DNA of 36,926 bases from a virus. Taxonomy: Duplodnaviria > Caudoviricetes. A program made the translations under genes and the position numbers. This document shows, one piece after another, positions 1 through 36,926 of the stretch. The stretch covers positions 1 to 36,926 of IMG/VR virus record IMGVR_UViG_3300002091_000057. One strand, 5' to 3'. How positions within the stretch are numbered: the stretch's first letter is position 1; every line of letters starts with the position of its first letter. Under the pieces are notes generated by a model. That model worked only from the letters and a program-made list of their open reading frames with translations. It searched no databases and was not told the DNA's origin.

Positions 1-198
1 AGTGTCGGTCTGTCGGGCCTGTAGAAAGTCTTCTACCAAGAGTTCTTCATAGCTACGGCCGCCTGAGCGTTGGTCCAGGACCTCCAGCAGGTGTTTGATT
101 GTGACATTGTCTCTACTGCCAGGTTTACGACCGGCACCGGGTCTGGCACCGCCGCGGCTTGAGATCTTGGGCTTGCCTGTTTTAGCGTTTGTTTCCAT
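1..198 (-). CDS. Partial diverged allele of the putative terminase small subunit (METNAKTGKPKISSRGGARPGAGRKPG...), truncated by the window edge
   Basis: ATG at 198 lies 4 nt after TAAATA (203-208). It aligns codon for codon with 34558 downward, with mostly synonymous changes. Confidence 0.75.
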   Translation of the reverse strand, partial: METNAKTGKPKISSRGGARPGAGRKPGSRDNVTIKHLLEVLDQRSGGRSYEELLVEDFLQARQTDT

Positions 199-258
199 AC
201 AGTATTTAGTGTTCGGAAACTATTGATAGATTTCCGTGCGGAACTGGATCTGCTGCAG

Positions 259-286
259 AAAAAGCCCCAGCAATCACACTTGGGGC
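259..286 (-). terminator. Rho-independent terminator after the 296-463 gene
   Basis: GCCCCA...TGGGGC stem (264-286) followed by TTTTT on the minus strand, 10 nt after the stop codon. Confidence 0.75.
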
Positions 287-295
287 CTCCCCGTT

Positions 296-463
296 TCACG
301 CAAGTTCTAACTGTTGTTTCAACGCTTCTATTTCAGCTTGTTGTTGCCGTAGCATGGTGGCTATATCATTCATTACATTTTTTGGTTCATTATCTATCCA
401 TTCCCTAATAGGAATTTCACAAGACAAGCCATCAGCAATTTCAGCCAATTCAATTGCAGTCAT
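296..463 (-). CDS. 55-aa small early protein (MTAIELAEIADGLSCEIPIREWIDNEPKNVMNDIATMLRQQQAEIEALKQQLELA), not in ORF track
   Basis: Translated by hand. GAAGGAAGGAAAAC RBS, upstream sigma70 promoter, downstream terminator, C-terminal coiled-coil pattern. Confidence 0.8.
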   Translation of the reverse strand: MTAIELAEIADGLSCEIPIREWIDNEPKNVMNDIATMLRQQQAEIEALKQQLELA

Positions 464-496
464 AGTTTTCCTTCCTTCGAGTCGAACTCGGCTCGT

Positions 497-525
497 AGTA
501 TACTACATGAACCGTTTGGGGTCAA
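497..525 (-). promoter_or_regulatory. sigma70-type promoter TTGACC-N17-TATACT
   Basis: -35 at 525-520, -10 at 502-497, exact 17-bp spacer, upstream of the 463 ATG. Confidence 0.8.
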
Positions 526-785
526 ATCTCGTGGACAACCAATCGGACCACTGTGTAATCCTGCGTGCCGGTGGCATAGTTCAATCTAGCAGCCAATCTG
601 TGTGCGTGTGCAGGACCAGTGAACACTGTTCTTGTGTATTTTCGATCCAGCACAGTTTCGGTATAGGCCGATATGATCTGGCCAGATCGGGCTATGGTCC
701 ACAAACCGCGCACTGCTTGTGTGATCAGGTGCTGACCTGGTTGGTTCCAGGCCACTTGGTCAAGTCTGGCAGCAGCGGGTCTCAT
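522..785 (-). CDS. 87-aa hypothetical phage protein, probably leaderless and late-promoter driven
   Basis: ORF starts 5 nt after TATAAATA (798-791 on minus). Confidence 0.7.
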   Translation of the reverse strand: MRPAAARLDQVAWNQPGQHLITQAVRGLWTIARSGQIISAYTETVLDRKYTRTVFTGPAHAHRLAARLNYATGTQDYTVVRLVVHEI

Positions 786-790
786 GTGGA

Positions 791-809
791 TATTTATAAA
801 CTATAAATA
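791..809. promoter_or_regulatory. Back-to-back pair of perfect T4-late-type boxes (TATAAATA on each strand)
   Basis: TATTTATA at 791-798 and TATAAATA at 802-809. TATAAATA is the established T4 gp55 late promoter consensus. Confidence 0.7.
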
Positions 810-814
810 TGCAC

Positions 815-1042
815 TTATGCAAACCAATCTTGTAGTATGGCGTCGTCGATCCGGAGCTTGGGAACTGGCCTCTGTGGTAGCTCGATCTCAACCTGGTCGG
901 CTTCGGGCTGAACAATTTCTAGATTCATGGCCCAAGATCGTTCAAGAGCGTCAAGCACGATTGAGTCGGCCTCCGGACCCCAACGATCGCGTAATCCCTT
1001 GAAGTGTGCTTCAAGCCTTAATCGTTCGAATAATCGGGTCAT
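815..1042 (-). CDS. 75-aa hypothetical early protein
   Basis: GGAGG RBS and ATGA overlap with the upstream gene; last gene of the sigma70 operon. Confidence 0.7.
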   Translation of the reverse strand: MTRLFERLRLEAHFKGLRDRWGPEADSIVLDALERSWAMNLEIVQPEADQVEIELPQRPVPKLRIDDAILQDWFA

Positions 1043-1281
1043 TCTACTGCCTCCAACTCTTTGCGAAGTTGTCTGTGTTCAGCAGGATCAAGATACTGTT
1101 CTGCTATGTTCCATTTTACAAAGTTCATATCATCTTCAAACCAATCCCAAGCATCGTCAAGACTGTTATAAGTTTTGTCAAGATATGTTGCCTTGCCGTC
1201 AACCATTTTAGGTTTATTAGCAATCATAGCCAAGCATATTCTCTTTAATGTTGCTTCTGGTGATAATACGCAATAAGTCAT
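1039..1281 (-). CDS. 80-aa hypothetical early protein
   Basis: GAGG RBS and ATGA overlaps at both ends. Confidence 0.8.
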   Translation of the reverse strand: MTYCVLSPEATLKRICLAMIANKPKMVDGKATYLDKTYNSLDDAWDWFEDDMNFVKWNIAEQYLDPAEHRQLRKELEAVE

Positions 1282-1451
1282 TCTGTGGCCTCTTTAATAA
1301 ACCATTTAGCACCGCAACAATAAAGGATTCTATTTAATGTAGGATGATGTATTTCCATAGGTCCGTTCCAACTTTGGATTTCAAACTCGTCTATTTCTAT
1401 AGCACAAGTAGATAATAATTTCATAGCCGTAACTGAGTTTATTGGTTTCAT
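1278..1451 (-). CDS. 57-aa hypothetical early protein (MKPINSVTAMKLLSTCAIEIDEFEIQSWNGPMEIHHPTLNRILYCCGAKWFIKEATE), not in ORF track
   Basis: Translated by hand. It fills the gap exactly, with ATGA overlaps on both sides. Confidence 0.8.
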   Translation of the reverse strand: MKPINSVTAMKLLSTCAIEIDEFEIQSWNGPMEIHHPTLNRILYCCGAKWFIKEATE

Positions 1452-1654
1452 TCTGCGGCCTCCAATTGTAATTCAAGTAATTCTCTGCGAAGTTTTTCCA
1501 GGATAGGTTCAATTTGGTCGGCCAAATCTGGCATACCACGCAAGGCCATTTTGGCTTGGTGGATGTGTAACTTCTTGAGTTCCACCGGTGACATCAATTG
1601 GATAGCGTTAAGAGCCCGACTCCATTCATCTTGTGTTAGCATATTTTTTTTCAT
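1448..1654 (-). CDS. 68-aa hypothetical early protein, first gene of the sigma70 operon
   Basis: GAAAGG RBS, directly downstream of the sigma70 promoter. Confidence 0.8.
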   Translation of the reverse strand: MKKNMLTQDEWSRALNAIQLMSPVELKKLHIHQAKMALRGMPDLADQIEPILEKLRRELLELQLEAAE

Positions 1655-1699
1655 TTTGCTGCCTTTCTTTGGTGATTGATTTAACTTACTACAAATACT

Positions 1700-1728
1700 A
1701 TTATACGGTCAGGGCCATTTCTGGTCAA
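1700..1728 (-). promoter_or_regulatory. Strong sigma70-type promoter TTGACC-N17-TATAAT
   Basis: -35 at 1728-1723, perfect -10 at 1705-1700, 17-bp spacer. Confidence 0.88.
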
Positions 1729-1772
1729 TGTTGTCTTTTTGCAACACTAACCGGTGTTGTTTTTGCGCAACA
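1729..1772. promoter_or_regulatory. Two 18-bp palindromic operator-like sites TGTTG-N8-CAACA (third variant at 1931-1948)
   Basis: tgttgtctttttgcaaca 1729-1746, tgttgtttttgcgcaaca 1755-1772 and tgtggcttttgtgctaca 1931-1948. Each abuts a promoter. Confidence 0.65.
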
Positions 1773-1774
1773 AC

Positions 1775-1780
1775 TAAATA
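1775..1780 (+). promoter_or_regulatory. TAAATA late-type box upstream of putative sRNA
   Basis: CTAAATA lies 5 nt before a closed stem structure that ends in a terminator. Confidence 0.6.
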
Positions 1781-1785
1781 ACTTG

Positions 1786-1922
1786 GTCCAGGTGTTTCGA
1801 GCACGAGGTTGCCGTCAAGAGTAGCCAATTGTTCTTGTCAATACTGTTTTGGTATTGTCCTTTTTTCTATCTATCTAACTCACCTGGACATCCTCCGGCC
1901 ACCCAAAAGGTGGCTTTTTTTT
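1786..1922 (+). ncRNA. Putative ~135-nt small RNA (RNA1)
   Basis: 9-bp closing stem GTCCAGGTG/CACCTGGAC (1786-94/1881-89), inner hairpins 1807-1826 and 1839-1857 with G-U pairs, own promoter box and terminator, no credible ORF. Confidence 0.6.
1898..1922 (+). terminator. Rho-independent terminator
   Basis: GCCACC-caaaa-GGTGGC followed by 8 T. Confidence 0.85.
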
Positions 1923-1953
1923 AGGTAAATTGTGGCTTTTGTGCTACACTACA

Positions 1954-1959
1954 TAAATA
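1954..1959 (+). promoter_or_regulatory. TAAATA late-type box (CATAAATA) upstream of large structured region
   Basis: Follows the terminator and third operator palindrome; precedes ~480 nt of hairpins. Confidence 0.6.
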
Positions 1960-1964
1960 GTAGC

Positions 1965-2436
1965 AGATAGAGAGAATCCCCAGGTTGGTATGCCAAGATA
2001 ACTTATACCGACAAACCCGTTCTGATGTGTGACGGTAGTCAATTCGCTGTTGCTCTCACAGTGGCCTATACGCACTACCCTTGACCGGATGCTTAAAGAA
2101 TAATCCTATTAGTCTGAACCCTACGAATGGATGACCCTTTGCGTGTATGTAATAGTTCAAAAGTGAGTGGGAGTCACGACCGCAAGGTTACCCCACAAGA
2201 GCACTGGATCGGATGTCCTTGTATCCCCAGTCTCTGCGTGTTCGCAACCAAACAGGTGATCGCAAAACCTACCTGGCCTCAATGGCGTTGTTATAAGGAT
2301 CTGTCCGACGATACCCGTCGAAGAATCACGGCTCGGATAGCGTGATTCTATCCTCAAATTACCCATCTGTCTCAACTGCAAAGAGAAAGGCAACATTGAG
2401 TGGCGTAAGACGCTCAATAGATCTCGCAAGAGATCT
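1965..2436 (+). ncRNA. Putative large structured RNA or origin-associated transcript (RNA2)
   Basis: About 12 stems visible by eye, several with G-U pairs that work only on the + strand and GNRA loops (GCAA, GTAA). The overlapping ORFs lack RBS and look spurious. Confidence 0.55.
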
Positions 2437-2458
2437 TGAAACTGTGTATTATATAACT

Positions 2459-2746
2459 ATGACACTCATCTCAAGCATCTACTCCAACCCATATTACCTC
2501 AGAGAGAATCATCGCGAATATTCAGAAGATGATTATCGATCTCAAATTCTAGGACTTGTAAAAATGAAACCCAACTATCAGGAATACGCAACCACCCGAA
2601 TGCCATTTGGTCGATACCGAGGTTATTTCATCAAGGATGTGCCAGAGGATTATCTCAAATGGGCAGTCATGAACATAAAAGATCAGGCACGAGCCACTAT
2701 GTTTGCTATCGAATTACAAAGAAGAAATCCCCGATTACGCCGATAA
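2459..2746 (+). CDS. 95-aa protein with DUF3820 / exodeoxyribonuclease X C-terminal-like domain
   Basis: MPFGRYRGYFIKDVPEDYLKWA matches the MPFGK(Y/H)KG..I.DVP..YL.W motif. Start moved to ATG 2459 because the upstream part is the hairpin region. Confidence 0.75.
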   Translation: MTLISSIYSNPYYLRENHREYSEDDYRSQILGLVKMKPNYQEYATTRMPFGRYRGYFIKDVPEDYLKWAVMNIKDQARATMFAIELQRRNPRLRR

Positions 2747-2754
2747 TCGTGTGT

Positions 2755-2776
2755 TATTTACAGTGTGGCATAAATA
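2755..2776. promoter_or_regulatory. Divergent pair of TAAATA boxes
   Basis: TATTTA at 2755-2760 and TAAATA at 2771-2776 in the intergenic gap before the 2803 gene. Confidence 0.55.
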
Positions 2777-2802
2777 AGTTTATAGAACAGAAAGGACAAG
2801 CA

Positions 2803-2979
2803 ATGACAACAGAACACCAACGCACTTGGGATCTATTACAATCTCAACCACCCACACGACTCACACAACTTGTAGCCCAGGTACGAGGTTTACCATATCC
2901 AGCCACCTGGCGTGAGCAACAGCTGGTGCACGAGATCATGCAGGCCACTTTACGGGAGGCGGATCATGCCGGAATTTGA
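2803..2979 (+). CDS. 58-aa hypothetical protein (MTTEHQRTWDLL...)
   Basis: AAAGGA RBS at 2791-2796 before ATG 2803. Confidence 0.75.
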   Translation: MTTEHQRTWDLLQSQPPTRLTQLVAQVRGLPYPATWREQQLVHEIMQATLREADHAGI

Positions 2980-3364
2980 ATATACAAGTCGAAGACAGAT
3001 GGAACCCAGACCAGGCCGTAACTATGCCACTGAATACTACAAACAAACACAACCAGAATACAATCTGTTACGAGCACATGTGTATGCGGTAGCAGCGGAA
3101 ATAATGAGCGAACGAGACAGCAGCCAAGACACCCTGTTGTGGACCAGTGAGCCATTGAAACAATTTAAACGGAGCACTCGGGGTCAATACTACAGCCTGA
3201 TAGAAATCGTCACAGACATGGTCGCTCAATTGGCTTCACACAAGGACATACCATCAGGTATCCTGGGTCGTTGGAATCGCTTGTTTGAGGGCACCAGATG
3301 GGACATTGTGATGGTGCTTGAAGCACAAGATCGAACCACACGGTTCCAGGAGTTGTTTCAATGA
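2966..3364 (+). CDS. 132-aa hypothetical protein (MPEFEYTSRR...)
   Basis: GGAGG RBS before ATG 2966; ATGA overlap with the next gene. Confidence 0.75.
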   Translation: MPEFEYTSRRQMEPRPGRNYATEYYKQTQPEYNLLRAHVYAVAAEIMSERDSSQDTLLWTSEPLKQFKRSTRGQYYSLIEIVTDMVAQLASHKDIPSGILGRWNRLFEGTRWDIVMVLEAQDRTTRFQELFQ

Positions 3365-3768
3365 CAAATCCAGCGGGTTCAAGACCGGGCCCAAGACCCC
3401 AGGTGTGGTTGAGTGGACCTGATGAGACCAGACACCAGCAACATGTGGCCTGGCGTCAACAAAAGAATCAAGCACAGTACCGCGGCGAAATCTGGGAACT
3501 GGCGTTTGAGGACTGGATCCTGTTATGGGGTGATAAGTGGCACCTGCGTGGTAGAACTGTAAATTGTTATTGCATGACCCGTCAGGATTGGGAACTGCCT
3601 TGGACACGGGCCAATGCTCATGTGATCACTAGAGAGGAACACGCCAGAATGCAAAATGTGGCCAAAAATCAGGGTTGGGTCAGTCCAGCCAGATCTCAAT
3701 GGCGAGCCGAAACTGGCACAGCCCGCAAGCGACCCGGTCGCAAACCCAGACCCAGGACTGCACCATGA
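3361..3768 (+). CDS. Degenerate HNH/His-Me-finger-like DNA-binding protein with basic C-terminal tail
   Basis: WELAFEDW...W...RGR...YCMTRQDWELPWTRANAHVITREEH resembles the phage R-x-D...N beta-beta-alpha family, with the catalytic His not evident. Tail is RKRPGRKPRPR. Confidence 0.5.
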   Translation: MTNPAGSRPGPRPQVWLSGPDETRHQQHVAWRQQKNQAQYRGEIWELAFEDWILLWGDKWHLRGRTVNCYCMTRQDWELPWTRANAHVITREEHARMQNVAKNQGWVSPARSQWRAETGTARKRPGRKPRPRTAP

Positions 3769-4343
3769 TAGATCCTGTTCGTTTCAAACACCAGGCCACA
3801 GATCCCTGGACTTGGCGTGCAGCTACTGGACCTGATGTGCCGGCCATGGTTGACTTGGCCCTGAGAAATTATGAATCTGATGCTCGTGGACTCACCGCTG
3901 TTGATCCTGTGGAAGGCAGCAGGAACTTGATGTATGCCATAGTGAATCAAATGTACAATCCCAAGACTGATTTTGTGAGTGTGGCCGAGCGACGGTCAGA
4001 TTCGCGATTGTTGGCTTTTACCTGGTGTGTGCGTGGCATCAGACAACCTTGGTCAACAGAGGAAATGGTTGTGCCCAAGGTCTTGAGTGCAGAACTGGGT
4101 CTCAGCACTAGAACCAGATTGGCCTTGAGCATACAGGGCATGTATCTTTGGGAACGCTGGGCTCATGTGTGCGAACTCCAATTGATCAACAGTTCAAGCA
4201 TGCGACTGGATTGGTCAGCATTTATGCAACTACACATGCGTATGGGTTACAGTGTGCGTGGATCCAATGCGTTCAAACGCTTGAGTACCATCACCTATGA
4301 AGTCAATAACCAACAGGCAGTGCCCAAGATCGTATTGCCTTAA
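3765..4343 (+). CDS. GNAT-fold acetyltransferase-like protein
   Basis: N-terminal WRAATGPDVPAMVDL, central VSVAE..LLAF strands and C-terminal LHMRMGY match the GNAT pattern; ATGA overlap at the start. Confidence 0.55.
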   Translation: MIDPVRFKHQATDPWTWRAATGPDVPAMVDLALRNYESDARGLTAVDPVEGSRNLMYAIVNQMYNPKTDFVSVAERRSDSRLLAFTWCVRGIRQPWSTEEMVVPKVLSAELGLSTRTRLALSIQGMYLWERWAHVCELQLINSSSMRLDWSAFMQLHMRMGYSVRGSNAFKRLSTITYEVNNQQAVPKIVLP

Positions 4344-4351
4344 ATATTCAG

Positions 4352-4446
4352 CTACGGGTCCGTCAAGATCGTACAGGATTGAGGAGTTTTGTCCCGTTCC
4401 TCCCAGACCAAAGGTAATGGTAAACCTACTGCGACGATCTTATTGA
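4352..4446 (+). ncRNA. Putative ~90-nt three-way-junction RNA (RNA3) between convergent operons
   Basis: TAAATA at 4341-4346. Stems AAGATCGT/ACGATCTT (4365-72/4434-41), GAGGAG/TTCCTC (4381-86/4397-4402) and AGGT/ACCT (4412-15/4424-27). Strand uncertain. Confidence 0.45.
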
Positions 4447-4706
4447 GTTACGAAATGTATTACAACACCCACAAGTATCAGGATCACAGCACCGGCCCAT
4501 CGTAGATAGGTGTGTGTGGTGTCGCTTCGAATGTCAGTGATGTGAGTGTGTATGTCAGTCAAGGTTGCGTGTATCTGGTCCAAGCGACCATCCACTTCAT
4601 CAAATTTTGCTATGAGTTGGTTGTATCTTTGAGCACACAGTTCGGTGTGCAATTCCAAGTTGCTGGCTTCACCGGTCACTGGTTCTATCACAGTCATTTC
4701 AGTCAT
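4440..4706 (-). CDS. Small coiled-coil protein with one C-terminal TM helix (XhlA-like / holin-like)
   Basis: Heptad pattern FDEVDGRLDQIHATL, then hydrophobic WAGAVILILVGVVIHFV. Likely start MTEMTV at 4706. Confidence 0.6.
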   Translation of the reverse strand: MTEMTVIEPVTGEASNLELHTELCAQRYNQLIAKFDEVDGRLDQIHATLTDIHTHITDIRSDTTHTYLRWAGAVILILVGVVIHFVTQ

Positions 4707-4708
4707 GC

Positions 4709-5140
4709 CTACTCCAAGGTCACTCGCAACATCCAAAGACTCTTTTCCAAGTCCAGGGCTTGATCCTGTGCATAGTTGGCTATTTCGTCCAGCCCTTCGT
4801 CATCAGCCACTTGTATCAGATCCTTGAAATCTTCCAAGAGATTTTCTAAATCTTGTTCAACCAAGTGTAACAGTTGATCGGCTGAGCCTTCAATGGCACC
4901 AGTAGGTATAAAACTCATTTCGACCAAGTCGGCTAGATCACACGGCATGTATTCATCCATACTGCGTAACAATTCACCTATACGGTCAATTTGATCTTGT
5001 CTGCGTGTGTAAATGCCTTCGAGCAATTTGTGATCCGATCTAAAATTTCTGCCGGTCACATTCACATGTGCCACATGCGATCTAAAATATGTGACAAAAT
5101 TGTCTCTAAACAGTTGCGTTAGTTTTTCTGCTGTGTTCAT
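4709..5140 (-). CDS. dps: Dps/ferritin-like protein
   Basis: HVAHVNVTGRNFRSDHKLLEGIY...IDRIGE...EKSLWML matches the Dps H-W-N-V-x-G-x-x-F-x-x-x-H, D-x-x-A-E and K-x-x-W-M-L motifs. Confidence 0.88.
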   Translation of the reverse strand: MNTAEKLTQLFRDNFVTYFRSHVAHVNVTGRNFRSDHKLLEGIYTRRQDQIDRIGELLRSMDEYMPCDLADLVEMSFIPTGAIEGSADQLLHLVEQDLENLLEDFKDLIQVADDEGLDEIANYAQDQALDLEKSLWMLRVTLE

Positions 5141-6127
5141 TTATTGTCCTTGGGGTAACTGTTGTGGTCGAACTGGCTTTAGGGCTTGTGCGGCTGCTTG
5201 TTGTCGAATCACACTATTTAAAAATTCTTGTCCACCAAGGCCTTCAATATCTCTCAGCGATCCTGATTGTAATACAGCTTGAGCTTGTTCGGGCGAAATG
5301 GGCGCACCATACTGGGTGTTGTGTTGACGGAATGCCTGTTCGGCTCGTTGTCCTTGCCCTTCAGCTAATCGTTGACCCAGCCCAGATTCTTGTGCGTATT
5401 GGCTGGCATCATAGGCATTTAATGCTAAACCTGCTGGCCCTAGCACTTTGCCAGCTCCTCGCACCACTGGTCCCAAGACTCGACCAATCTGTTGCATGCG
5501 ACCGGGCACTAGTTGAACTAATTCTTTTGCTTCGGGCATGGCACGAATTGCTGGATCAGCTGTGTCAAAAAATTCTTTTAAACCTTGAGCACCACGCTGA
5601 GTGATCAAATTGGTTAATCTAGCAGATTCAGATTTTGGCAAAGTATCCATTAATGTATTAAATGTGTTTTGCAAACCAGGAGTTGTGGCAATTCGGCTGG
5701 CCAAGGCTTGTCCTGTGTCAGCGGCTTGTTTTAGAGCACCATAAGTTTCGTGCAGACCTTTCAAGGCACTGGCAGTGCCAAATACTGGGGGCATTCCGTG
5801 TGTGGCCATCAAGGTATCTGCAATGGCCTTGCCAGCACCACCTGCTCCGGCTCCGTATGAATTGAATACTCGACCTGGAATTTGTGCAAATGGTTTCAGT
5901 GTTTCTCCAACAGCTTGTCCATTAAATCCTGTGGGCCCGGGCACAGCAAATTGAGGCATGGGCGACACAGATGTTTCAGATCCGTACTCGGCCTGCACCG
6001 GTGGTCGTAAAAATTGATCTGGATCAAACCCTCCAGTTTCTTGTCGAACTGGAGACGGTTGATTCGTAGTGGTTTCAACCGATTCTGGTTGAGTCCGTTC
6101 AAGGAATGCATCTGGATCAAATGCCAT
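5141..6127 (-). CDS. Putative internal virion / DNA ejection protein
   Basis: Gly/Ala/Gln-rich, repeated FDPD(A/Q)FL motif, located after the large ejection protein. Confidence 0.55.
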   Translation of the reverse strand: MAFDPDAFLERTQPESVETTTNQPSPVRQETGGFDPDQFLRPPVQAEYGSETSVSPMPQFAVPGPTGFNGQAVGETLKPFAQIPGRVFNSYGAGAGGAGKAIADTLMATHGMPPVFGTASALKGLHETYGALKQAADTGQALASRIATTPGLQNTFNTLMDTLPKSESARLTNLITQRGAQGLKEFFDTADPAIRAMPEAKELVQLVPGRMQQIGRVLGPVVRGAGKVLGPAGLALNAYDASQYAQESGLGQRLAEGQGQRAEQAFRQHNTQYGAPISPEQAQAVLQSGSLRDIEGLGGQEFLNSVIRQQAAAQALKPVRPQQLPQGQ

Positions 6128-9100
6128 TATCTTATTCCTATTCTTGTCAGTATTTCAGCGGATCTTGGATCGTTGGGGTTTTGTTTGACCCATTTGTATG
6201 CCTGTTCAGCTTCTTTGGCATTGCCCAGGAAATAGCGTGAGTCTGGTTCCATGCCGTTGTTCATACGCTGACGATTCACACCCACCTTGATAATTTCTTC
6301 CAATTGATGAGCATTTCTTAAAAATGCTTCTTCGCTGATACCCTTGTCTTGTAACGCAGACAAGGCAGCCGAAGCTGACGCACCTTCTTTGTCACTGATA
6401 GCACCAGCTCCGCGCAGTTTGGCAAATTGTACCATGAATTTTTCAGCTTCCAACTGGTTGTATTTGGCAGTCCAGTCTCTTGCTTCGGTACCACGAATTT
6501 GTAACATGCCAGTAATACCCGGTACACCCACATTGGTTTTTAGGCCTTCTGATATAAGCGGATTACCATTTTTGTCCAACTTGATCTTGCCGGTTTTATT
6601 GTCTGTTTGATACAGCACATCATTAATGGTACCCAAAATCTGATCAGCTTGTGCTTGATATTCTGGGAATGCCAAGGTAGATTTGGCCTGTCCTTCGGCA
6701 AGATCTGCGGCCAATTTGTCATAAACTTTTTGTCTGGCCTTGAACACTGCTTCAGGTTCATTCATACCACGCACAGGTGGTGGTCCAGCTTTGTCAATTA
6801 CTGCACGATTTTCTGTTGCAACAACAGGAGCTGTTGTTGCAGTTGATACACCAGCAGTTTTGTTTGCCATCATTGACAAGTATCGTTCAGCTGTGGTATC
6901 CAGTTGTGGATTGGTTTTTCTTGCGGCACTGCCAGGAGCAAAGCCCAGCATGTCAGCTACATTTTTCTGTGCGTTGGCAGGGTCAATGACCTTGCCCACA
7001 TTGCCAGCACCAATTGCTTGTGCTAGATAGATGTTTCTTGGAGTGGCTTCTACCCCAGCCTGTTTCAAAGATGCAGTGTTCATTTGCGTCATTACTTCAT
7101 ATAACTTTTCTTGATTTTCTCCACTGAATTGATCTTGATCAGTCAGGCCAGCTGACTTCATCAGGCCACGCACTGTGCCAGGCAGGAATCCATATTTGCC
7201 AGCACCGCCGGTATTGTCTTTCATGCGGCTGTCCATTATTTTCAATGCTTCACCAATGCTCAACTGAGATAAATTTCGACCACCATTTGCGGCTGGTATT
7301 GATTTGTCTCCACCTGGCCCACCAAAACCAAATATAGCATCGTAGCCGGCTTGACCGCCTTCGTTGCGACCAATAACTTCCTTGAGTGAATTTGGATTTG
7401 TTGTACCAGTCTGAGCGGTTGCGGCGACTGTGGCAGGATTCACAGGACCTTGAGATCCTGGTACACCGCCTTGCACAAATCCGTAATTGCGCAGGAATGT
7501 GGCTTCTTCATCGGCAGTAATATTGCCACGATCCTTTTTAAGTTGTGCCAAGGCACTCAAAGCATCTTTGCCATATTGCGTTTTAAGACTGTTTATATAG
7601 TTGATGTCGCTGATCAATTGATGCGTGGTAACTCGTTTGGCAGTAGGTATGTCACTGCCGAGATAGATTTGATCTTTGTTAGGACCTGTGGCATACACAT
7701 AATCCACATTACCAGTTTTGAGATTTTGTCTTTGACGCACTTCAGCTGGCTTGCCATCGGGTCCGTTGACCACACCTTGTTCACCAGTAAAAGTAAACTG
7801 ATGACTGGAGTTGTATGGTCCTTGTGAGGCCCAGGCATATAATTCTTTACCAGTGATGGCAGTACCATCTGCACGAACACCACCAACTGGAGCACCTTGT
7901 GAGTTGTAAGTGAGCACACCGTGTTCACCGTTGGGTCCTTGTGCTGCCATGGTTTTGTTGCCTTGGCTGCTGGCCCATTCTAGTAGTTTGGTGCCTGTAA
8001 TAGCAGTGCCATCTGCTCGCACGCCTGATACTGGATTGCCGTTGCCATCCACCGTGATCATGCCACTTTCGCCATTGGGGCCAATCGCGGCTGTGGTGCG
8101 ATTTTTCAAGCCCAGTTTGTTGGCTTCTAGATCGGCGGCTGCGTGTAGGTTCATGCCTTGGAACAACAGATACTTGACCCAACTGCCGTCTGATCCTGAT
8201 CGTTGTGCTTCACGCATGACTGGACGCATGTCGCCAGATTCTTGTGCCTTGGCAAATAGTTCTTGTGCGGCTTTTTCGGCACGCTTTTGATCAACAAAAT
8301 TGCTGAGATGTTGTTCAGCCACACCACGCACCCATTTTGGTGCATTGGGGTCAAAGGCCATTTCAGCAACCATTCTAGGATCTTGCTGTGCTCCGGTAAA
8401 TCTTTCAGCCCAACCTTCAGGATCCATCAGTTCGGTACCAGGACCCATCTGACCGGGTGTGGTGTTCTCAACTGAGGTGTTGGGCGCGACCGCAAGCGGT
8501 GTAGGCACAACAGGTTTTGCTGGAGCCACATACCCTTTGGGTTCAGTTCCAGGTGCATAGTTGGGAGTTGGTTTTAGGCCATTGGCTCGATCACGATAAT
8601 ACTGAATTTTTTCTGCATAGGTTTTCATACCGCTGGTTTCGTTGTCAGGCAATATAGTTGTGGGGTTGCCAGGTGTGCCGTTAGCACTGCGGTAACTGGG
8701 CGGATACAAGGCAGCATCTTGGAAAGTTTCTTGAGGTGCTACGGGCTTACCAGTTTTGATATCAAACACTTCACCGGCCATGCCACCTTCTTGCTGTAGT
8801 TGGTTTTGCGGCGACACTGGTGCTGTTGTTTGTTGTGATAAAAACTGTGCTCGAGGATTTTGATTTTGATTAGTTTGACCCGGATAGCCTCCAACATCTG
8901 GCTGTCGTCCTTGCAAATTGGGATTGAATTGACTGCCGTCCATGGGCGATACCGGTGACACCGGATTCATTGTGTTCAATTGACCTTGTGGTCGGCTGGC
9001 CAAATAACCTTGTAGCATTTGGTCACCTGTCATGGTGGCTGCTGCCGGTTGGCTCACTGTGGGCGTAAACGGATTGGCACTACTGAGATCTTTGGTGGAT

Positions 9101-9243: not shown

Positions 9244-9246
9244 AAA

Positions 9247-10200: not shown

Positions 10201-10203
10201 AAT

Positions 10204-11344: not shown

Positions 11345-11349
11345 ACGAG

Positions 11350-11356
11350 TATTTAG
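11350..11356 (-). promoter_or_regulatory. Late-type box CTAAATA, 5 nt before cupin ATG
   Basis: Sits in an 18-bp intergenic gap with no Shine-Dalgarno. Confidence 0.7.
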
Positions 11357-11362
11357 CGGCGG

Positions 11363-16824: not shown

Positions 16825-16826
16825 GA

Positions 16827-22000: not shown

Positions 22001-22009
22001 TGGCTGTCC

Positions 22010-23606: not shown

Positions 23607-23628
23607 TATTTAGTTGAGGGCTTAAATA
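23607..23628. promoter_or_regulatory. Late-type box CTAAATA (minus, 23613-23607) with a divergent TAAATA (plus, 23623-23628)
   Basis: A promoter is needed here because a terminator lies just upstream; the box is 5 nt from the ATG with no SD. Confidence 0.72.
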
Positions 23629-26081: not shown

Positions 26082-26436
26082 TTATATTTTCCTTGTCAGT
26101 GACGGCGGGGTTTTGTAAACTTACCGCCCGGTTTTTCATACTCACTGATCTCTTCAGTGTACTTATGAAACTTTCTATGCCTGCAAGTTGGTTACTGAGT
26201 GCAACTCGCTGGCAATTACTATCAGGATCGTGACCGGGTATCAGGGTCAATTGATCCATTATTTCAAATTGCCACTGATGTACAAACAGGGCAAGATCTC
26301 TATTCTTCAACAAGGCTTCTGCAGCACTACCGTGGCTTTTGACTCGATCCAGTTCACTGGGTTTCATTTGCTTGATTGAGTTCAAGTCCACTGTGAGTCT
26401 AGTATTAAAAGCTTCTATAGTTGTGTCATTCAGCAT
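26071..26436 (-). CDS. 121-aa helical protein following the portal gene
   Basis: GSAAEALLKN motif; small gene between portal and scaffold. Confidence 0.75.
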   Translation of the reverse strand: MLNDTTIEAFNTRLTVDLNSIKQMKPSELDRVKSHGSAAEALLKNRDLALFVHQWQFEIMDQLTLIPGHDPDSNCQRVALSNQLAGIESFISTLKRSVSMKNRAVSLQNPAVTDKENINDN

Positions 26437-28751: not shown

Positions 28752-28758
28752 TATTTAG
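28752..28758 (-). promoter_or_regulatory. Late-type box CTAAATA upstream of portal, overlapping the TerL stop
   Basis: CAACTAAATACACA is identical to the context at 23603-23616; followed by an AAGGA SD. Confidence 0.65.
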
Positions 28759-30365: not shown

Positions 30366-31951
30366 GCAAACAGTCCTGTGGCCTGTAACGGATGTGTGTG
30401 TTCGTACCAGGCTGCTATTCTTCTTTCACTGATGGCAACATAAGCAGGATCCAGTTCTATACCGGTGTAGTCATAATCCAGTTCCACTGCGGCACAGCCG
30501 GTTGATCCTGAACCATTGAACGGATCCAGCACACGACCACCTGAGGGTGTTACAAGTTTTATAAGATACTTCATCAACTCAATAGGCTTGACTGTGGGGT
30601 GGTTGTTGCCCCGGTTGGCATCAGTGCGAGCATCCAGCCCAACTGCCATCCTATTACCGTCTGGTCCATAAGCACCCTGGACCGCACCAAACATAGCGGC
30701 AGGTAGTTCGTGTCCTATGTGCCGTTCGGCTCGGCCAACTTTGGGACAGTAGAAATACTTTTGGTAGTCTGCGATCTCACCTACGACATTGCTGGGGAAG
30801 CGGCCTATTTGACTAGGCTCCCAGTTTAACTGTTCACCTTCACGCAGACCTTGATCAGCATTTTTTTCCGCGTTATAGTTTTCGTGTGCAGTGGTTCCCA
30901 TCTTACCTGACTTGGGCTTAGTGGACTTCTTTTGATCCTGATATTTCTCCACCGGTTGCTCGCTAAAGCCTACACGACTCCATCCATCTGAGCCACCTTG
31001 CGGTCGATCTTTCTTTTTACCAGCCCAACCACCCGCATACAAAGCATTACCTTGTGTGTCACGCAAGTTGTTGGCAGGATCAAAGTCAGCAGGATCTTCA
31101 TTATCTGCGTAAGGCACACGACAAGCATCAATGTGCAAGGCGCCCACGCCCCACTGTTGACAGTTTTTAGCTATTGATAACCGGATAGGCTTGCGGGCTA
31201 ACACAATGGGTTCGTGTGCGGGCTTTAACTGTGTGCCCCAACCAGACCATTGCTGACCTGCAGGAGTTTGGCTTTGTGTGATATCCACAACGCTGGCACC
31301 CGAAGCACCAATGGTATAACGCTGTTCGTCGCTGAAGCAACCTGATAACTTTTCACCTACTTTGATCTGTGGTGTGGTGATAAAGTAATCATCATAGTCA
31401 TCACCACAACCCAGCACTGATTTGAGCGTGATCCACTTGTCATCCTTGGGCAAGTTGTTGGCCCAACCTTTGTCTCGGAAGTCAGTTTTTAGATAACCGC
31501 CTGCGTTGAATCCACACTCACGAGAGATCTCTGCTGTGCTTTTGCCTGAATCAGCGTAAAGTTGTTTTAGTATGGCTTTGACTTCTGACAATTCTGCTTT
31601 GTGTGATGCTTTGCCTGATTGACGATCAATGCTCTTGCCAATGTCTTGACTCTTGGGAAAGCCACTTGAGTAGATCCACATTATCTGATCACGGATCTCA
31701 AAGCCGGCCTGTTCGATTGTGACAGCCAAGTGATGGTAAGTTCGTGCGGCACTGAAGGCTAAAATATGTCCACCAGGTTTAAGCACTCGTAAACACTCTT
31801 GGTAAGTCTCTAGGGCACCTGTGTTGGCGTCCCAGGCTTTACCTAAAAAGTCTATGCCGTAGGGTGGATCGGTTACTATGCTATCAAAGTAATTGTCGGG
31901 GAATGTTTTGAGGACATCCGCATTATTGCCCTGTATGATTCGACTGTTCAT
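30362..31951 (-). CDS. DNA N6-adenine/N4-cytosine methyltransferase (beta class)
   Basis: VTDPPY motif IV at the N-terminus; HPTVKP...VLDPFNGSGSTG motif I at the C-terminus. Confidence 0.95.
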   Translation of the reverse strand: MNSRIIQGNNADVLKTFPDNYFDSIVTDPPYGIDFLGKAWDANTGALETYQECLRVLKPGGHILAFSAARTYHHLAVTIEQAGFEIRDQIMWIYSSGFPKSQDIGKSIDRQSGKASHKAELSEVKAILKQLYADSGKSTAEISRECGFNAGGYLKTDFRDKGWANNLPKDDKWITLKSVLGCGDDYDDYFITTPQIKVGEKLSGCFSDEQRYTIGASGASVVDITQSQTPAGQQWSGWGTQLKPAHEPIVLARKPIRLSIAKNCQQWGVGALHIDACRVPYADNEDPADFDPANNLRDTQGNALYAGGWAGKKKDRPQGGSDGWSRVGFSEQPVEKYQDQKKSTKPKSGKMGTTAHENYNAEKNADQGLREGEQLNWEPSQIGRFPSNVVGEIADYQKYFYCPKVGRAERHIGHELPAAMFGAVQGAYGPDGNRMAVGLDARTDANRGNNHPTVKPIELMKYLIKLVTPSGGRVLDPFNGSGSTGCAAVELDYDYTGIELDPAYVAISERRIAAWYEHTHPLQATGLFA

Positions 31952-32196
31952 TGTGGTTGTCCAAGATCTCGATAGATGGCGTGCAAGTGTCCAAGTGCTT
32001 GTGCTAGATCAGCAACTTCTACTGTGTCCAACTGTCGTGTAGCATTCTTGTCCAGGCCTTTTTGCAAGCGTTCAGCAGTGAGTCTGAGACAGTGTTCAAT
32101 CTGACCAGGATACTTGAGTCTGAATGCTTCTCTATTGGCCTGTCCCACACGCTGTGCTATTTTAATATCGGCTACAGCTCGATCATTTGGTGTCAT
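31948..32196 (-). CDS. 82-aa hypothetical helical protein
   Basis: ATGA overlaps at both ends. Confidence 0.75.
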   Translation of the reverse strand: MTPNDRAVADIKIAQRVGQANREAFRLKYPGQIEHCLRLTAERLQKGLDKNATRQLDTVEVADLAQALGHLHAIYRDLGQPQ

Positions 32197-32981
32197 TCAG
32201 TGTCTGCGTCCAAGGCCCAAGGATTGCGTAGTTCACCACCTTCTACATTCACAAACTCTCGATCGATCCAGGTGTCCCACCAGTTGCTGTTGTTGATACG
32301 CATGGTCTGCATGACAGCACGGATGTTACGACCCACTGGAGTTAGTGTGCCATCTTTACGCACGATCACTTGTTCGCCGGTCCTGGGATCTACCCAGCGG
32401 ATTATTTCGGGTCTCATTCGACCAAACTTGTCCATCTTTTCACCGTGTGGTCTTTGGTCTAAGGGTCCCATCACTTCATAGCTGATCATGCCGTTCTTGT
32501 ACTTGCGGAATAAACAATCAACCTTGCGATCTTGGGCACGAAAGTCCGGATCTGGGTGTGCCATGAATCTTGACACAAAATTGTTCTGCACTTGATCAGG
32601 TGCTGGCAAGCTGGGATCTCTTGGTGCAGGTTCTTTCATGGCTTCTACTGGAATAAGGTCTGCTCGTTCCAGGTATGGATTGTCTGTGCCTATGTAGATG
32701 GGATTGACTTCCAGTCCATTCAACACATCCATGGCCACTTGATACTTTAACTTGTTGGCACGACCTTTGAGAGTTAGCACCAGACCTGTTTGATCAAACA
32801 CGAACCTTTCCAGTTCAGTGGCTGTGGGAAAGTCTGTCATGAGACCGTCTATGTCATACTCTGGAGCAATGACTTCAGGCCGGGGGGTTGTGGGTCGGGT
32901 TACAGCAGGATCGACTGGAACATCATTCCAGACATCAATGGCCTCAGTGGGCTCAATAGGGGTTACTTCGCTTTTTCGCAT
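32193..32981 (-). CDS. 262-aa hypothetical protein
   Basis: Long clean ORF with AAGGA RBS. Confidence 0.8.
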   Translation of the reverse strand: MRKSEVTPIEPTEAIDVWNDVPVDPAVTRPTTPRPEVIAPEYDIDGLMTDFPTATELERFVFDQTGLVLTLKGRANKLKYQVAMDVLNGLEVNPIYIGTDNPYLERADLIPVEAMKEPAPRDPSLPAPDQVQNNFVSRFMAHPDPDFRAQDRKVDCLFRKYKNGMISYEVMGPLDQRPHGEKMDKFGRMRPEIIRWVDPRTGEQVIVRKDGTLTPVGRNIRAVMQTMRINNSNWWDTWIDREFVNVEGGELRNPWALDADTE

Positions 32982-33338: not shown

Positions 33339-33520
33339 TTTTTCTTCATGCCTCGTAGTGTTTCGGCAAGTCTGGCACGCTGGCCCAACTTACCAGGAGC
33401 CTTGGCGGCTCGTGCCAGTTTCTTGGCTGGAATTGTTTCGCCCTTTTTCACGCCCATTTCTCGACGCAGTGCGCCTGGCTTCTGGATGGCATCAGCAATG
33501 AAATTCTTTTTAGTGGCCAT
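33335..33520 (-). CDS. 61-aa highly basic phage protein (FIADAIQKPGALRREMGVKKGETIP)
   Basis: GAGG RBS and TAATG overlap; from recall, a small phage family usually found near packaging genes. Confidence 0.8.
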   Translation of the reverse strand: MATKKNFIADAIQKPGALRREMGVKKGETIPAKKLARAAKAPGKLGQRARLAETLRGMKKK

Positions 33521-33924
33521 TATTGACTGTTACCTCGAACGGGACCACGACCCATGTTGATCTGATCAGGATTGCCTCGATAGTTCTGTCCTGGCTTGGG
33601 ATCAAATGGTCTTGTGCCACCGGGAGTGCGTTCTTGCTTGCCAAAGTTCAATGAGTCATTTGCACCCATTGCGGCTTTGAAATTAGGCAGGCTACTGGTA
33701 GGAGGCTTTTCTGGACCAGCAGCAGGTGTGCCGTTGTTGCCCACTGTAGGACCACGGCCATAGTTGCCACCTGCTCGGCCACCGTGTTGGTTGCCCGAGT
33801 ACTTGGAGCTCTTGGTAGTGATCCTACTGTTGTTGTCCTGGCCATTGCTGGCCAAATTGGCATCGCCCTCTTGGTCCAGGTTACGGCCAATTGCATTAGG
33901 GGTCTTGGTGTTCATAGTTTTCAT
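33520..33924 (-). CDS. 134-aa Gly/Asn/Pro-rich disordered protein
   Basis: AAGGA RBS; operonic. Confidence 0.75.
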   Translation of the reverse strand: MKTMNTKTPNAIGRNLDQEGDANLASNGQDNNSRITTKSSKYSGNQHGGRAGGNYGRGPTVGNNGTPAAGPEKPPTSSLPNFKAAMGANDSLNFGKQERTPGGTRPFDPKPGQNYRGNPDQINMGRGPVRGNSQ

Positions 33925-33933
33925 TTGTTTTCC

Positions 33934-34194
33934 TTAGTCCATCTCTCGATCGGTCTTGCTTGTTGCAGCCAGGACCACTGGATGGAATGGTTGTCTGGCT
34001 CCGGTACTGGCTGTGTGGCTCTCATACTGCGTGCCTTGTTCTTCTATATGACTGCTGTGTGAATTCCGCTTGCCTGCCTCACGCTGTTCACTGTAGGCAA
34101 TGGCCACTGCTTGCTTAACTGGCTTACCGGCCCGCACTTCAGCCGCGATGTTTTTTCCAAATGCTTTTTTTGAGGTTGATTTGATCAATGGCAT
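33934..34194 (-). CDS. 86-aa basic phage protein (MPLIKSTSKKAFGKNIAAE...KQAVAIAYS)
   Basis: Recognisable phage small-protein motif; CTAAATA 8 nt upstream and no SD. Confidence 0.8.
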   Translation of the reverse strand: MPLIKSTSKKAFGKNIAAEVRAGKPVKQAVAIAYSEQREAGKRNSHSSHIEEQGTQYESHTASTGARQPFHPVVLAATSKTDREMD

Positions 34195-34201
34195 AATATT
34201 A

Positions 34202-34558
34202 TTATTTAGTCCGGTTGGGATTGCCCACTACAGCACTCAAGGCTGCGGCAAAGGCGGCGGCTCTAGTGGCTACAGCATCTGCACTATCGGTCACTTCCAT
34301 TGTGTTCAAGGTGGCCAATAACTTGTTGCCAATCAAGTGATGATATTTCATGGCCAGACTAGCGTCGGTCTGTCGGGCCTGTAGGAAGTCTTCTACTAGC
34401 AGTTCTTCATAGCTACGGCCGCCTGAGCGTTGGTCCAGGACCTCCAACAGGTGTTTGATCGTGACATTGTCTCTACTGCCAGGTTTACGACCGGCACCAG
34501 GTCTAGCACCGCCACGGCTTGAGATCTTGGGCTTGCCTGTTTTTGCGTTTAGTTCCAT
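34202..34558 (-). CDS. Putative terminase small subunit / DNA-binding packaging protein (118 aa, start MELNAK)
   Basis: RGGARPGAGRKPGS motif is typical of TerS N-termini. TAAATA-N5-ATG start. The allele comparison supports this frame and start. Confidence 0.6.
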   Translation of the reverse strand: MELNAKTGKPKISSRGGARPGAGRKPGSRDNVTIKHLLEVLDQRSGGRSYEELLVEDFLQARQTDASLAMKYHHLIGNKLLATLNTMEVTDSADAVATRAAAFAAALSAVVGNPNRTK

Positions 34559-36926
34559 ACTGTTATTTAGCGTTCGGAAACTATTGATAGATTTCCGTGC
34601 GGAACTGGATCTGCTGCAGAAAAAGCCCCAGCAATCACACTTGGGGCCTCCCCGTTTCACGCAAGTTCTAACTGTTGTTTCAACGCTTCTATTTCAGCTT
34701 GTTGTTGCCGTAGCATGGTGGCTATATCATTCATTACATTTTTTGGTTCATTATCTATCCATTCCCTAATAGGAATTTCACAAGACAAGCCATCAGCAAT
34801 TTCAGCCAATTCAATTGCAGTCATAGTTTTCCTTCCTTCGAGTCGAACTCGGCTCGTAGTATACTACATGAACCGTTTGGGGTCAAATCTCGTGGACAAC
34901 CAATCGGACCACTGTGTAATCCTGCGTGCCGGTGGCATAGTTCAATCTAGCAGCCAATCTGTGTGCGTGTGCAGGACCAGTGAACACTGTTCTTGTGTAT
35001 TTTCGATCCAGCACAGTTTCGGTATAGGCCGATATGATCTGGCCAGATCGGGCTATGGTCCACAAACCGCGCACTGCTTGTGTGATCAGGTGCTGACCTG
35101 GTTGGTTCCAGGCCACTTGGTCAAGTCTGGCAGCAGCGGGTCTCATGTGGATATTTATAAACTATAAATATGCACTTATGCAAACCAATCTTGTAGTATG
35201 GCGTCGTCGATCCGGAGCTTGGGAACTGGCCTCTGTGGTAGCTCGATCTCAACCTGGTCGGCTTCGGGCTGAACAATTTCTAGATTCATGGCCCAAGATC
35301 GTTCAAGAGCGTCAAGCACGATTGAGTCGGCCTCCGGACCCCAACGATCGCGTAATCCCTTGAAGTGTGCTTCAAGCCTTAATCGTTCGAATAATCGGGT
35401 CATTCTACTGCCTCCAACTCTTTGCGAAGTTGTCTGTGTTCAGCAGGATCAAGATACTGTTCTGCTATGTTCCATTTTACAAAGTTCATATCATCTTCAA
35501 ACCAATCCCAAGCATCGTCAAGACTGTTATAAGTTTTGTCAAGATATGTTGCCTTGCCGTCAACCATTTTAGGTTTATTAGCAATCATAGCCAAGCATAT
35601 TCTCTTTAATGTTGCTTCTGGTGATAATACGCAATAAGTCATTCTGTGGCCTCTTTAATAAACCATTTAGCACCGCAACAATAAAGGATTCTATTTAATG
35701 TAGGATGATGTATTTCCATAGGTCCGTTCCAACTTTGGATTTCAAACTCGTCTATTTCTATAGCACAAGTAGATAATAATTTCATAGCCGTAACTGAGTT
35801 TATTGGTTTCATTCTGCGGCCTCCAATTGTAATTCAAGTAATTCTCTGCGAAGTTTTTCCAGGATAGGTTCAATTTGGTCGGCCAAATCTGGCATACCAC
35901 GCAAGGCCATTTTGGCTTGGTGGATGTGTAACTTCTTGAGTTCCACCGGTGACATCAATTGGATAGCGTTAAGAGCCCGACTCCATTCATCTTGTGTTAG
36001 CATATTTTTTTTCATTTTGCTGCCTTTCTTTGGTGATTGATTTAACTTACTACAAATACTATTATACGGTCAGGGCCATTTCTGGTCAATGTTGTCTTTT
36101 TGCAACACTAACCGGTGTTGTTTTTGCGCAACAACTAAATAACTTGGTCCAGGTGTTTCGAGCACGAGGTTGCCGTCAAGAGTAGCCAATTGTTCTTGTC
36201 AATACTGTTTTGGTATTGTCCTTTTTTCTATCTATCTAACTCACCTGGACATCCTCCGGCCACCCAAAAGGTGGCTTTTTTTTAGGTAAATTGTGGCTTT
36301 TGTGCTACACTACATAAATAGTAGCAGATAGAGAGAATCCCCAGGTTGGTATGCCAAGATAACTTATACCGACAAACCCGTTCTGATGTGTGACGGTAGT
36401 CAATTCGCTGTTGCTCTCACAGTGGCCTATACGCACTACCCTTGACCGGATGCTTAAAGAATAATCCTATTAGTCTGAACCCTACGAATGGATGACCCTT
36501 TGCGTGTATGTAATAGTTCAAAAGTGAGTGGGAGTCACGACCGCAAGGTTACCCCACAAGAGCACTGGATCGGATGTCCTTGTATCCCCAGTCTCTGCGT
36601 GTTCGCAACCAAACAGGTGATCGCAAAACCTACCTGGCCTCAATGGCGTTGTTATAAGGATCTGTCCGACGATACCCGTCGAAGAATCACGGCTCGGATA
36701 GCGTGATTCTATCCTCAAATTACCCATCTGTCTCAACTGCAAAGAGAAAGGCAACATTGAGTGGCGTAAGACGCTCAATAGATCTCGCAAGAGATCTTGA
36801 AACTGTGTATTATATAACTATGACACTCATCTCAAGCATCTACTCCAACCCATATTACCTCAGAGAGAATCATCGCGAATATTCAGAAGATGATTATCGA
36901 TCTCAAATTCTAGGACTTGTAAAAAT
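34361..36926. repeat. Right copy of terminal direct repeat; duplicates all features of 1-2565
   Basis: Same ORFs, promoters and hairpins as the left end. Confidence 0.97.
34564..34570 (-). promoter_or_regulatory. Late-type box CTAAATA heading the whole morphogenesis region
   Basis: Downstream of a terminator, 5 nt before the ATG, and conserved in the diverged allele (203-209) while its flanks vary. Confidence 0.75.

Follow-up and report, generated by a model that had tools for sequence, protein, structure and literature searches.

Among described phage satellites, MiniFlayer and MulchRoom of Streptomyces (deCarvalho et al. 2023, PMC10690885) are the closest to the case reported here. According to the accessible part of that paper, they encode their own capsid, portal and terminases and have no primase or replicase; MiniFlayer has a short tail and no integrase, and its helper is a large virulent phage. 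Among viruses of eukaryotes, the virophages of giant viruses also form their own particle, and the available text describes their genes as lying under the giant virus's late promoter motif (PMC10301787). P4, phage-inducible chromosomal islands (PICI), capsid-forming PICI (cf-PICI) and PICI-like elements (PLE) (PMC10690885), and the jumbo-transduced island I55 (PMC12595487), are likewise parasites of helper phages; as presented in the accessible parts of these sources, they are integrating elements that have a replicase of their own and steal capsids or tails. Here we analyze a 36,926-bp stretch of viral DNA, IMG/VR record IMGVR_UViG_3300002091_000057, the whole of which we call the window. It is the genome of a podophage that carries TAAATA boxes and, at 1982–2355 (+), a structured RNA element, both of which are also found in jumbo phages. 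We propose that the window phage is probably an obligate satellite that multiplies only in jumbo-infected cells.

How does the window phage compare with the described satellites? Like MiniFlayer, it has its own capsid and packaging genes and no recognisable replicase, primase or integrase, divergent proteins being possible. It differs in its 34-kb genome, its full podophage tail and ejection set, and the ~350-kb size of its proposed helper class. It differs also in that a molecular link can be named, a putative helper late promoter together with a shared RNA element; the accessible part of PMC10690885 never uses the word "promoter". Dependence on a helper is experimental for MiniFlayer and MulchRoom, as reported there, whereas for the window phage it is predicted from sequence. 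The likeness to virophages implies no homology, since the window phage has a bacterial host and an HK97-type tailed virion, and would use host RNA polymerase (RNAP) with a helper sigma factor. Relative to P4, PICI, cf-PICI, PLE and I55 it is the reverse, with no integrase or primase match and a full capsid and tail set. A previous reading of the window from its letters alone (the sequence-only reading) drew this contrast with P4, PICI and PLE. The contrast stands for gene content, but self-packaging satellites without a replicase are already known from MiniFlayer (PMC10690885, part of the text). The literature that we searched, mostly without subscription papers, contained no description of this podophage family or of a phage satellite under a helper's late sigma factor. 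One 2026 review, in its accessible part, calls it unclear whether larger helpers have more satellites and gives few cases (PMC13359090); another (PMC13282480) does not use the word "satellite". What is new here is that the gap at 1982–2355 is recognised as a predicted covarying RNA element common to jumbo phages and bacterial islands, and that a candidate helper class is named.

TAAATA boxes in the podophage family and in jumbo phages

The window belongs to a large freshwater family, with 234 terminase relatives in IMG/VR, of which the best 80 were kept. We took 19 relatives of 30–39 kb, 6 of them with direct terminal repeats; the same gene core is found in these as in the window, and their gene starts, called with our own script, are approximate. 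A single family marker protein corresponds to 1,139 protein clusters. By capsid tblastn, MW202484 (60% capsid identity) was the sole relative among 50,697 phage records; it has genes for ERF, SSB, RusA, Cro and a chitinase-type endolysin.

All 11 TAAATA sites named in the sequence-only reading as heads of transcription units are present in the window, and all are intergenic. Seven head protein genes, with the ATG 5 nt away (791, 11350, 23607 and 34564), 8 nt (34203), 21 nt (28752) or 26 nt (2771), and those at 1775 and 1954 head non-coding units. The claim does not hold for the remaining two, 804 and 4341, which are antisense and have no called gene behind them. The raw TAAATA count (23, including 6 duplicates from the end overlap, against 15.3 expected) is only a mild excess, reached by 3 of 100 shuffles. 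Nonetheless, 13 of the 17 sites in one genome unit lie outside genes, though the non-genic share is 6.5%, and a test of intergenic sites counted 12 against a shuffle mean of 2.8, which none of 2000 shuffles reached.

The strong TAAATA signal stems from the family and not from the window alone. Across 19 family genomes, 727 genes were called and 143 of them have TAAATA within 40 nt upstream, where shuffles gave 30.6 on average and never more than 49; leaving out the window makes it 138 of 688. Two spacings between box and gene recur: one of 4–9 nt (mode 5), which leaves no room for a ribosome site, and one of 17–31 nt, usually with an AGGA or GGAG stretch. Orthologous genes keep their box, as seen for the gene behind the capsid gene (10/11 genomes), an ejection gene (10/11) and the portal gene (9/11). 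The core is TAAATA, mostly within CTAAATA or ATAAATA (63 of 84 sites). MW202484 has the box ahead of none of its 55 genes.

With start codons as a proxy for transcript heads, this is a conserved box at a fixed short distance, as in late promoters of the T4 (gp55) type. Like the T4 late promoter (TATAAATA, with gp55, gp33 and gp45; PMC7892883) and the ATAAATA motif of the jumbo phage CBB (PMC5259590), both as given in the available text, it is a single A/T box ahead of structural genes with no -35 element. It differs in its TAAATA core, in the many genes that start 5 nt behind the box, and in that the phage itself has no recognisable sigma factor. A reading of the boxes as archaeal TATA elements was rejected in view of the 5-nt modal spacing and the presence of sigma-70 promoters.

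Some boxes come in back-to-back pairs. The window has three, 7–10 nt apart, at 786–814, 2755–2776 and 23607–23628; the first consists of two TATAAATA boxes (791 on the minus strand, 802 on the plus strand). In each pair one box has no gene and would yield an antisense RNA, which for the plus-strand box at 804 would run into the four-gene early operon described below. Pairs of this kind number 19 in 662 kb from the family and 10 in 570 kb from jumbo phages.

Which polymerase might read the box? A six-frame search for phrog_234, the gp55-like late-sigma family, found matches at E<=0.001 in 7 of 9 jumbo contigs, in none of 27 small phages and in none of 15 bacteria; one further match, at E 0.02, was above the cut-off. 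The Sigma70_r2 profile, rejected as a detector, matched 0 of 32 genomes, and it is blind to gp55 because the jumbo phages were among these. A gp33 (PF16805) search matched 0 of 16 and was uninformative, as its control gave no match anywhere. In two jumbo phages, TAAATA is the top upstream hexamer and precedes 115 of 735 genes (shuffle mean 39, maximum 54), at the same two spacings as in the podophage family. Three element-bearing bacteria (760 kb) have it ahead of 21 of 690 genes, compared with ~19 after shuffling, and never at a spacing of 4–6 nt. The enrichment before start codons that the sequence-only reading called for is thus present across the family and in gp55-bearing jumbo phages and absent from candidate hosts; in the window alone (5 of 39 genes, automated starts) it only equals the shuffle maximum of 5.

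A reference for these jumbo phages, G034 (L211), is a near-complete, 356-kb, Rak2/PA5oct-like freshwater phage with a T4-type capsid. Among the 97 of its 435 called genes that were scanned are those for the late sigma factor, helicase, primase, SSB, UvsX/UvsW-like and gp46/47-like proteins, ligase, ribonucleotide reductase and endolysin; its sigma factor shares 40–46% identity with the sigma factors of PA5oct, Paride and 121Q, and PA5oct and 121Q are its cultured kin. The available text on the Rak2-like phage CBB gives a predicted late motif ATAAATA and a gp55-like sigma factor, with no gp33 or gp45 detected (PMC5259590). PA5oct is described as depending on the host polymerase, and sigma-70-like motifs alone are reported in the accessible part of that paper (PMC7318152). 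Hence, of the gp55/gp33-type machinery to which the sequence-only reading had assigned the boxes, the gp55-like sigma factor is borne out by the jumbo contigs, but gp33 is reportedly lacking from this class (PMC5259590, in part). The helper class is likely to be ~350-kb Rak2/CBB/PA5oct-like jumbo phages with a gp55-like sigma factor and no detected gp33, and the boxes are probably promoters read through the helper's sigma factor. Four sequencing runs with all or part of the window also contain relatives of the jumbo gp46-47-55 block, a necessary condition only; no negative control accompanied this, and the source may be X1 and X2.

The RNA element at 1982–2355

Downstream of the box at 1954–1959 (+) lies a structured RNA element, Polynucleobacter-1-like, at 1982–2355 (+), with a hairpin tail conserved to ~2460. 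The box is 63 nt upstream of the element's invariant 19-mer, a spacing as in chromosomal island copies. We found the 19-mer at no fewer than 119 viral loci (~210 estimated) and at 57 bacterial-genome loci. By their genes, which also defined the islands, the 80 viral loci that have flanks were classed as jumbo-like (54), small-phage-like (24) or unplaced (2). A TAAATA 45–140 nt ahead of the 19-mer is nearly universal in islands (47 of 48), less frequent at small-phage loci (10 of 24) and rare at jumbo loci (1 of 53), the background being 2.6%. Reading 1954–2560 as a protein gene was rejected; it has no conserved frame, and conservation among relatives is at the DNA level.

The Polynucleobacter-1 RNA motif (Rfam RF01718) was catalogued without function by Weinberg et al. 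2010 (PMC2864571, in the text available). The likeness comes through jumbo copies that share the window's 19-mer and score 38–74 bits against a gathering threshold of 37 bits; of six large-contig copies four pass, and the two others fail, as does a close relative of the window copy. The window copy differs in that it is ~370 nt long, compared with 141 model positions, and the model does not match it. Profiles built without small-phage copies nevertheless cover window positions 1982–2355, and, with the seed masked, a jumbo-plus-island profile matches the window at E 1e-14 and an island-only profile at E 3e-13. Single-sequence folding of 1965–2480 is weak (z -1.9). Aligning 36 rows, we found changes on both sides in 23 of the 32 predicted pairs, and the first stem of the window copy is preserved by two changes unique to it. 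We conclude that the window copy is homologous to RF01718-passing copies by alignment and shares predicted, covarying 5′ stems with them; beyond the seed this homology is traced mainly through island copies. An Rfam scan of the window gave a weak hammerhead match alone (E 0.09), which we dismissed.

In jumbo phage G034 the element sits behind a gp55-gp47-gp46-small nuclease operon. In family genomes it occupies a slot that can instead hold replication genes: among 20 genomes, the element is found in 8, a primase-like gene with a helicase (VapE or SF3) in 2 and a 389-aa protein with PolA-like motifs in 3, while 7 have none of these, and the element never co-occurs with the primase-helicase genes or the 389-aa gene. 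Four changes, 2 of them forced by well-supported branches, are needed to explain the element on a tree of portals with 20 rows, from which one short portal was omitted. The genomes G010 and G011 differ in slot content although their portals are identical; both records are concatemer-like assemblies. The 389-aa slot protein belongs to a family of 350–610 aa with 409 relatives (L409:280-1449, L099, L096, L414, L416), whose invariant motifs, D..., K...G(A) and HD, recall family-A polymerases; hidden Markov models (HMMs) did not confirm the polymerase assignment, and a resemblance to TV-Pol is putative. Primase-helicase members such as G036, with the box at 15 of 45 genes, still have no sigma factor. 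From slot and context, the chances seem about even that the helper's replisome uses the element as an origin.

A separate unit precedes the element: a TAAATA box at 1775, a ~115-nt non-coding stretch and a terminator-like hairpin with a T run (1897–1925), together 1775–1925 (+), which is possibly a short RNA. In 7 of 8 element-bearing genomes a second TAAATA lies 207–329 nt ahead of the 19-mer and is followed by a terminator-like T run. Within the window, pairing of this upstream RNA with the element's leader does not exceed chance, since 113 of 200 shuffles paired equally well.

Bacterial copies are mostly in Polynucleobacter, Limnohabitans, other Burkholderiaceae and Rhodobacteraceae. Their neighbours are tyrosine recombinases, DUF6641 and an AAA protein, and a tRNA gene lies within 6 kb at 8 of 34 loci scanned. 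The islands L265–L321 also have DUF6876 and DUF6626, their AAA protein is clamp-loader-like, and they are present in cultured isolates. The element-bearing islands are nearer to the P4/PICI/I55 class than the window phage is, and are likely capsid-less satellites of the same jumbo phages.

Box use is weaker in five unrelated siphophage-type genomes, at 26 of 211 genes where shuffles gave at most 23; the element is present, whole or in part, in three of the five. These genomes (G033 at L259–L260, G044, G045, G050 and G052) are 28–36 kb long, with an unrelated virion module and no late sigma factor. Some have Dps; the element is in G033 and G050, with a trace in G052, or there are primase-helicase and PolA-motif genes. 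They are candidates for a second satellite lineage.

Genome layout and gene content

The sequence-only reading took the genome to be complete, with an end overlap, and this was confirmed: positions 1–2565 recur at 34,360–36,926 with 99.4% identity (15 mismatches and one gap at the extreme start), giving a unit of 34,361 bp, and CheckV completeness of the record is 100%. The mismatches are concentrated, 1–203 differing by 7% from 34,361–34,563 and the other 2.3 kb being identical; the divergent first 203 bases are probably a strain variant joined during assembly. Neither tRNA nor tmRNA genes were found in the window, and GC skew gave no origin signal in the window or in jumbo phages.

About 29 kb of the minus strand form a single packaging-head-tail-ejection block. 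From its upstream end this comprises a 118-aa protein at 34202–34569 (TAAATA 34564, 5 nt ahead of the ATG), which by its position and a motif resembles a small terminase and has no family match; a 262-aa conserved packaging-operon protein (32193–32981) with no known fold; a DNA N6/N4 methyltransferase (30362–31951); the terminase large subunit (28755–30365); the portal (26436–28730; TAAATA 28752, 21 nt ahead of the ATG); the SU10-type major capsid protein (23693–24868); tail, collagen-like fibre and head-completion genes (11012–23601; TAAATA 11350 and 23607, each 5 nt ahead of an ATG); and DNA ejection or internal virion proteins (5141–11010). Also on the minus strand are a Dps/ferritin-like protein with jumbo homologs (4709–5140) and an XhlA/haemolysin-like small membrane protein (4440–4736). 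PHROG and Pfam matches cover TerL, an SU10-type portal and capsid, tail and fibre proteins, and ejection proteins. The same searches with 47 window ORFs (open reading frames) matched no polymerase, primase, helicase, SSB, integrase, repressor, RNAP, sigma or endolysin family. On virion genes, as on the lack of recognisable replication, integration, repressor, RNAP and sigma genes, the sequence-only reading was therefore right. The endolysin family phrog_181 is found in 0 of 23 small phages, in 4 of 4 jumbo phages and in MW202484. Lysis is likely borrowed from the helper, the absence of an endolysin being limited to the families scanned.

On the plus strand, next to the RNA element, is a 60-aa ExoX-C/QSregVF_b-like protein (2564–2746), which adjoins the element also in the unrelated siphophage G033. 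An operon headed by TAAATA 2771 has a 132-aa protein (2966–3364), for which the structural model is confident and matches no known fold; HNH-like (3361–3768) and GNAT-like (3765–4343) ORFs follow. The sequence-only reading had suspected the 262-aa and 132-aa proteins of being a regulator or initiator. The 262-aa model (predicted local distance difference test, pLDDT, 83.5) has an uncharacterised phage homolog as its sole match (best PDB Z 4.8), and the 132-aa model (pLDDT 88.8) matches uncharacterised phage proteins only (best Z 5.2), with no usable match in the ESM Atlas. Sigma, initiator and helicase folds are not among the matches listed, which is not proof of absence. An 87-aa protein (522–785, minus strand; TAAATA 791, 5 nt ahead of the ATG) has homologs in the jumbo phages G034 and G018; neither it nor the RNA element has a real match among the 50,697 cultured/GenBank phage records.

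Two further features, this element and a sigma-70-type promoter, are additional to the sequence-only reading. The promoter, TTGACC-17-TATAAT (11 of 12 positions; 1728–1700, minus strand), heads four small leftward ORFs of 68, 57, 80 and 75 aa (815–1654, minus strand), none with a family match and two with homologs among relatives, which are likely an early operon. Sigma-70-type sites overall are at chance frequency in 1–5300 (8, compared with 8.6). Of 26 genomes scanned, 22 have a match at 11 of 12 positions, frequently in the accessory region, and family members carry near-consensus TTGACA-17-TATAAT promoters. From this promoter match, the window phage appears to keep a host sigma-70 early operon. 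A perfect TTGACA-17-TATAAT lies at 17512–17540 (+), opposite a tail gene; the site may be a chance match, or may let the host polymerase silence virion genes by antisense transcription.

Sharing with jumbo phages extends to accessory genes. All 11 family genomes of the initial comparison, and both jumbo phages, have the Dps-like gene, and relatives (G007, G001, G004) also carry GroES, SOD and glycosyltransferase genes, one of them 72% identical to a jumbo gene. This sharing of Dps, GroES, SOD and glycosyltransferase genes suggests gene flow within common hosts.

Helper dependence and its alternatives

Since the window phage has its own virion, shares its boxes and RNA element with jumbo phages, and has no recognisable sigma factor, replicase or endolysin, it is likely a satellite of jumbo-infected cells. 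The sequence-only reading had proposed dependence on a co-infecting T4-like or jumbo helper for late transcription and probably for DNA replication, and our analysis largely supports it. We propose the following course. The phage would inject its own DNA, consistent with its tail and ejection genes, and host sigma-70 polymerase would read the four-gene early operon. A Rak2/PA5oct-like jumbo phage would then make its late sigma factor, and the TAAATA boxes would fire to give leaderless and leadered packaging, head and tail mRNAs; the conservation and spacing of the boxes are observed, the start sites predicted. Transcription from the box at 1954 would yield the RNA element, which would serve as a helper-type, RNA-primed origin for the jumbo replisome, a function suggested by homology, covariation and slot-swapping. 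The genome would be packaged in its own capsid and released by helper lysis. The helper might be met by co-entry, as in MiniFlayer, or by waiting in the cell under the early operon.

Several observations weigh against this proposal. The window copy of the element misses the RF01718 threshold, with no match in the window at E<=1, the seed-masked jumbo-only profile fails to match the window, and the window copy is nearest to island and small-phage copies. Its 3′ subtype occurs at 13 viral loci, one of which is a jumbo fragment (there, the element is at its usual site behind gp47-gp46). At 11 of 53 jumbo loci TAAATA lies less than 45 nt upstream, and no clear GC-skew minimum is seen at the jumbo element. 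Few proteins are common to the window and the two jumbo phages examined. Profile searches may miss a divergent factor, and folding covered 2 of ~20 uncharacterised window ORFs, those of the 262-aa and 132-aa proteins. The element is not required family-wide, because 7 of 20 genomes have neither it nor a recognised replication gene and ~20 loci are empty between the GNAT-like and terminase-small-like genes; four empty-slot genomes examined carry accessory genes elsewhere. Lastly, the PolA-like label of the slot protein is based on motifs and a 0.81 Atlas match, which PDB and Pfam HMMs did not confirm.

Could the phage be autonomous? A small uncharacterised ORF would then redirect host RNAP to TAAATA, and host enzymes would replicate the genome from the element, or an unrecognised initiator would act. 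There is indeed a sigma-70 early operon of uncharacterised ORFs, some relatives bring a primase and a helicase, and ColE1-type origins need host enzymes only. Yet the early ORFs are not kept across the family and the boxes are; near-universal non-structural genes sit in TAAATA-headed operons, and the genes for the 262-aa, GNAT-like and 86-aa proteins are also in MW202484, which does not use the box. The use of the same box by unrelated siphophages and capsid-less islands, together with the lack of an endolysin among the PHROG and Pfam families scanned, further argues that autonomy is unlikely.

Dependence might instead be restricted to late transcription, with or without lysis, the element being a regulatory or interfering RNA and replication being recombination-dependent, from terminally redundant ends. 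Family members without the element, the UvsX/UvsW/gp46-47-like genes of jumbo phages, and the lack of a skew signal at the jumbo copy would all fit. This is quite unlikely given that the element and replication genes replace each other in one slot, and that islands, whose common genes include recombinases but no recognised replicase, keep it. That the host is a lineage whose own sigma factor reads TAAATA, with no helper needed, is very unlikely, even though the bacteria sampled comprise only three genomes (760 kb): family members have near-consensus TTGACA-17-TATAAT promoters, and element-bearing bacteria have neither TAAATA enrichment in core genes nor a gp55-like gene.

Helper dependence would extend beyond the window phage. 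With slightly less than even confidence, we suggest that a guild lives on Rak2/PA5oct-like freshwater jumbo phages, in which this large family of fully tailed podophages, unrelated siphophages, and integrative islands of Polynucleobacter, Limnohabitans and Rhodobacteraceae share a plug-in of the jumbo's late promoter ahead of its RNA-primed origin. The podophages would then be true bacterial virophages, common but so far taken for ordinary lytic phages. The helper's late box in a genome without a sigma factor offers a sequence signature for finding such satellites. For the RNA motif catalogued without function in 2010, box and element would, if the proposal is true, together be a phage-switched replicon. 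If these phages are helper-dependent, many small "complete" lake phages would be hyperparasites, and virus-host models and viral counts would read differently.

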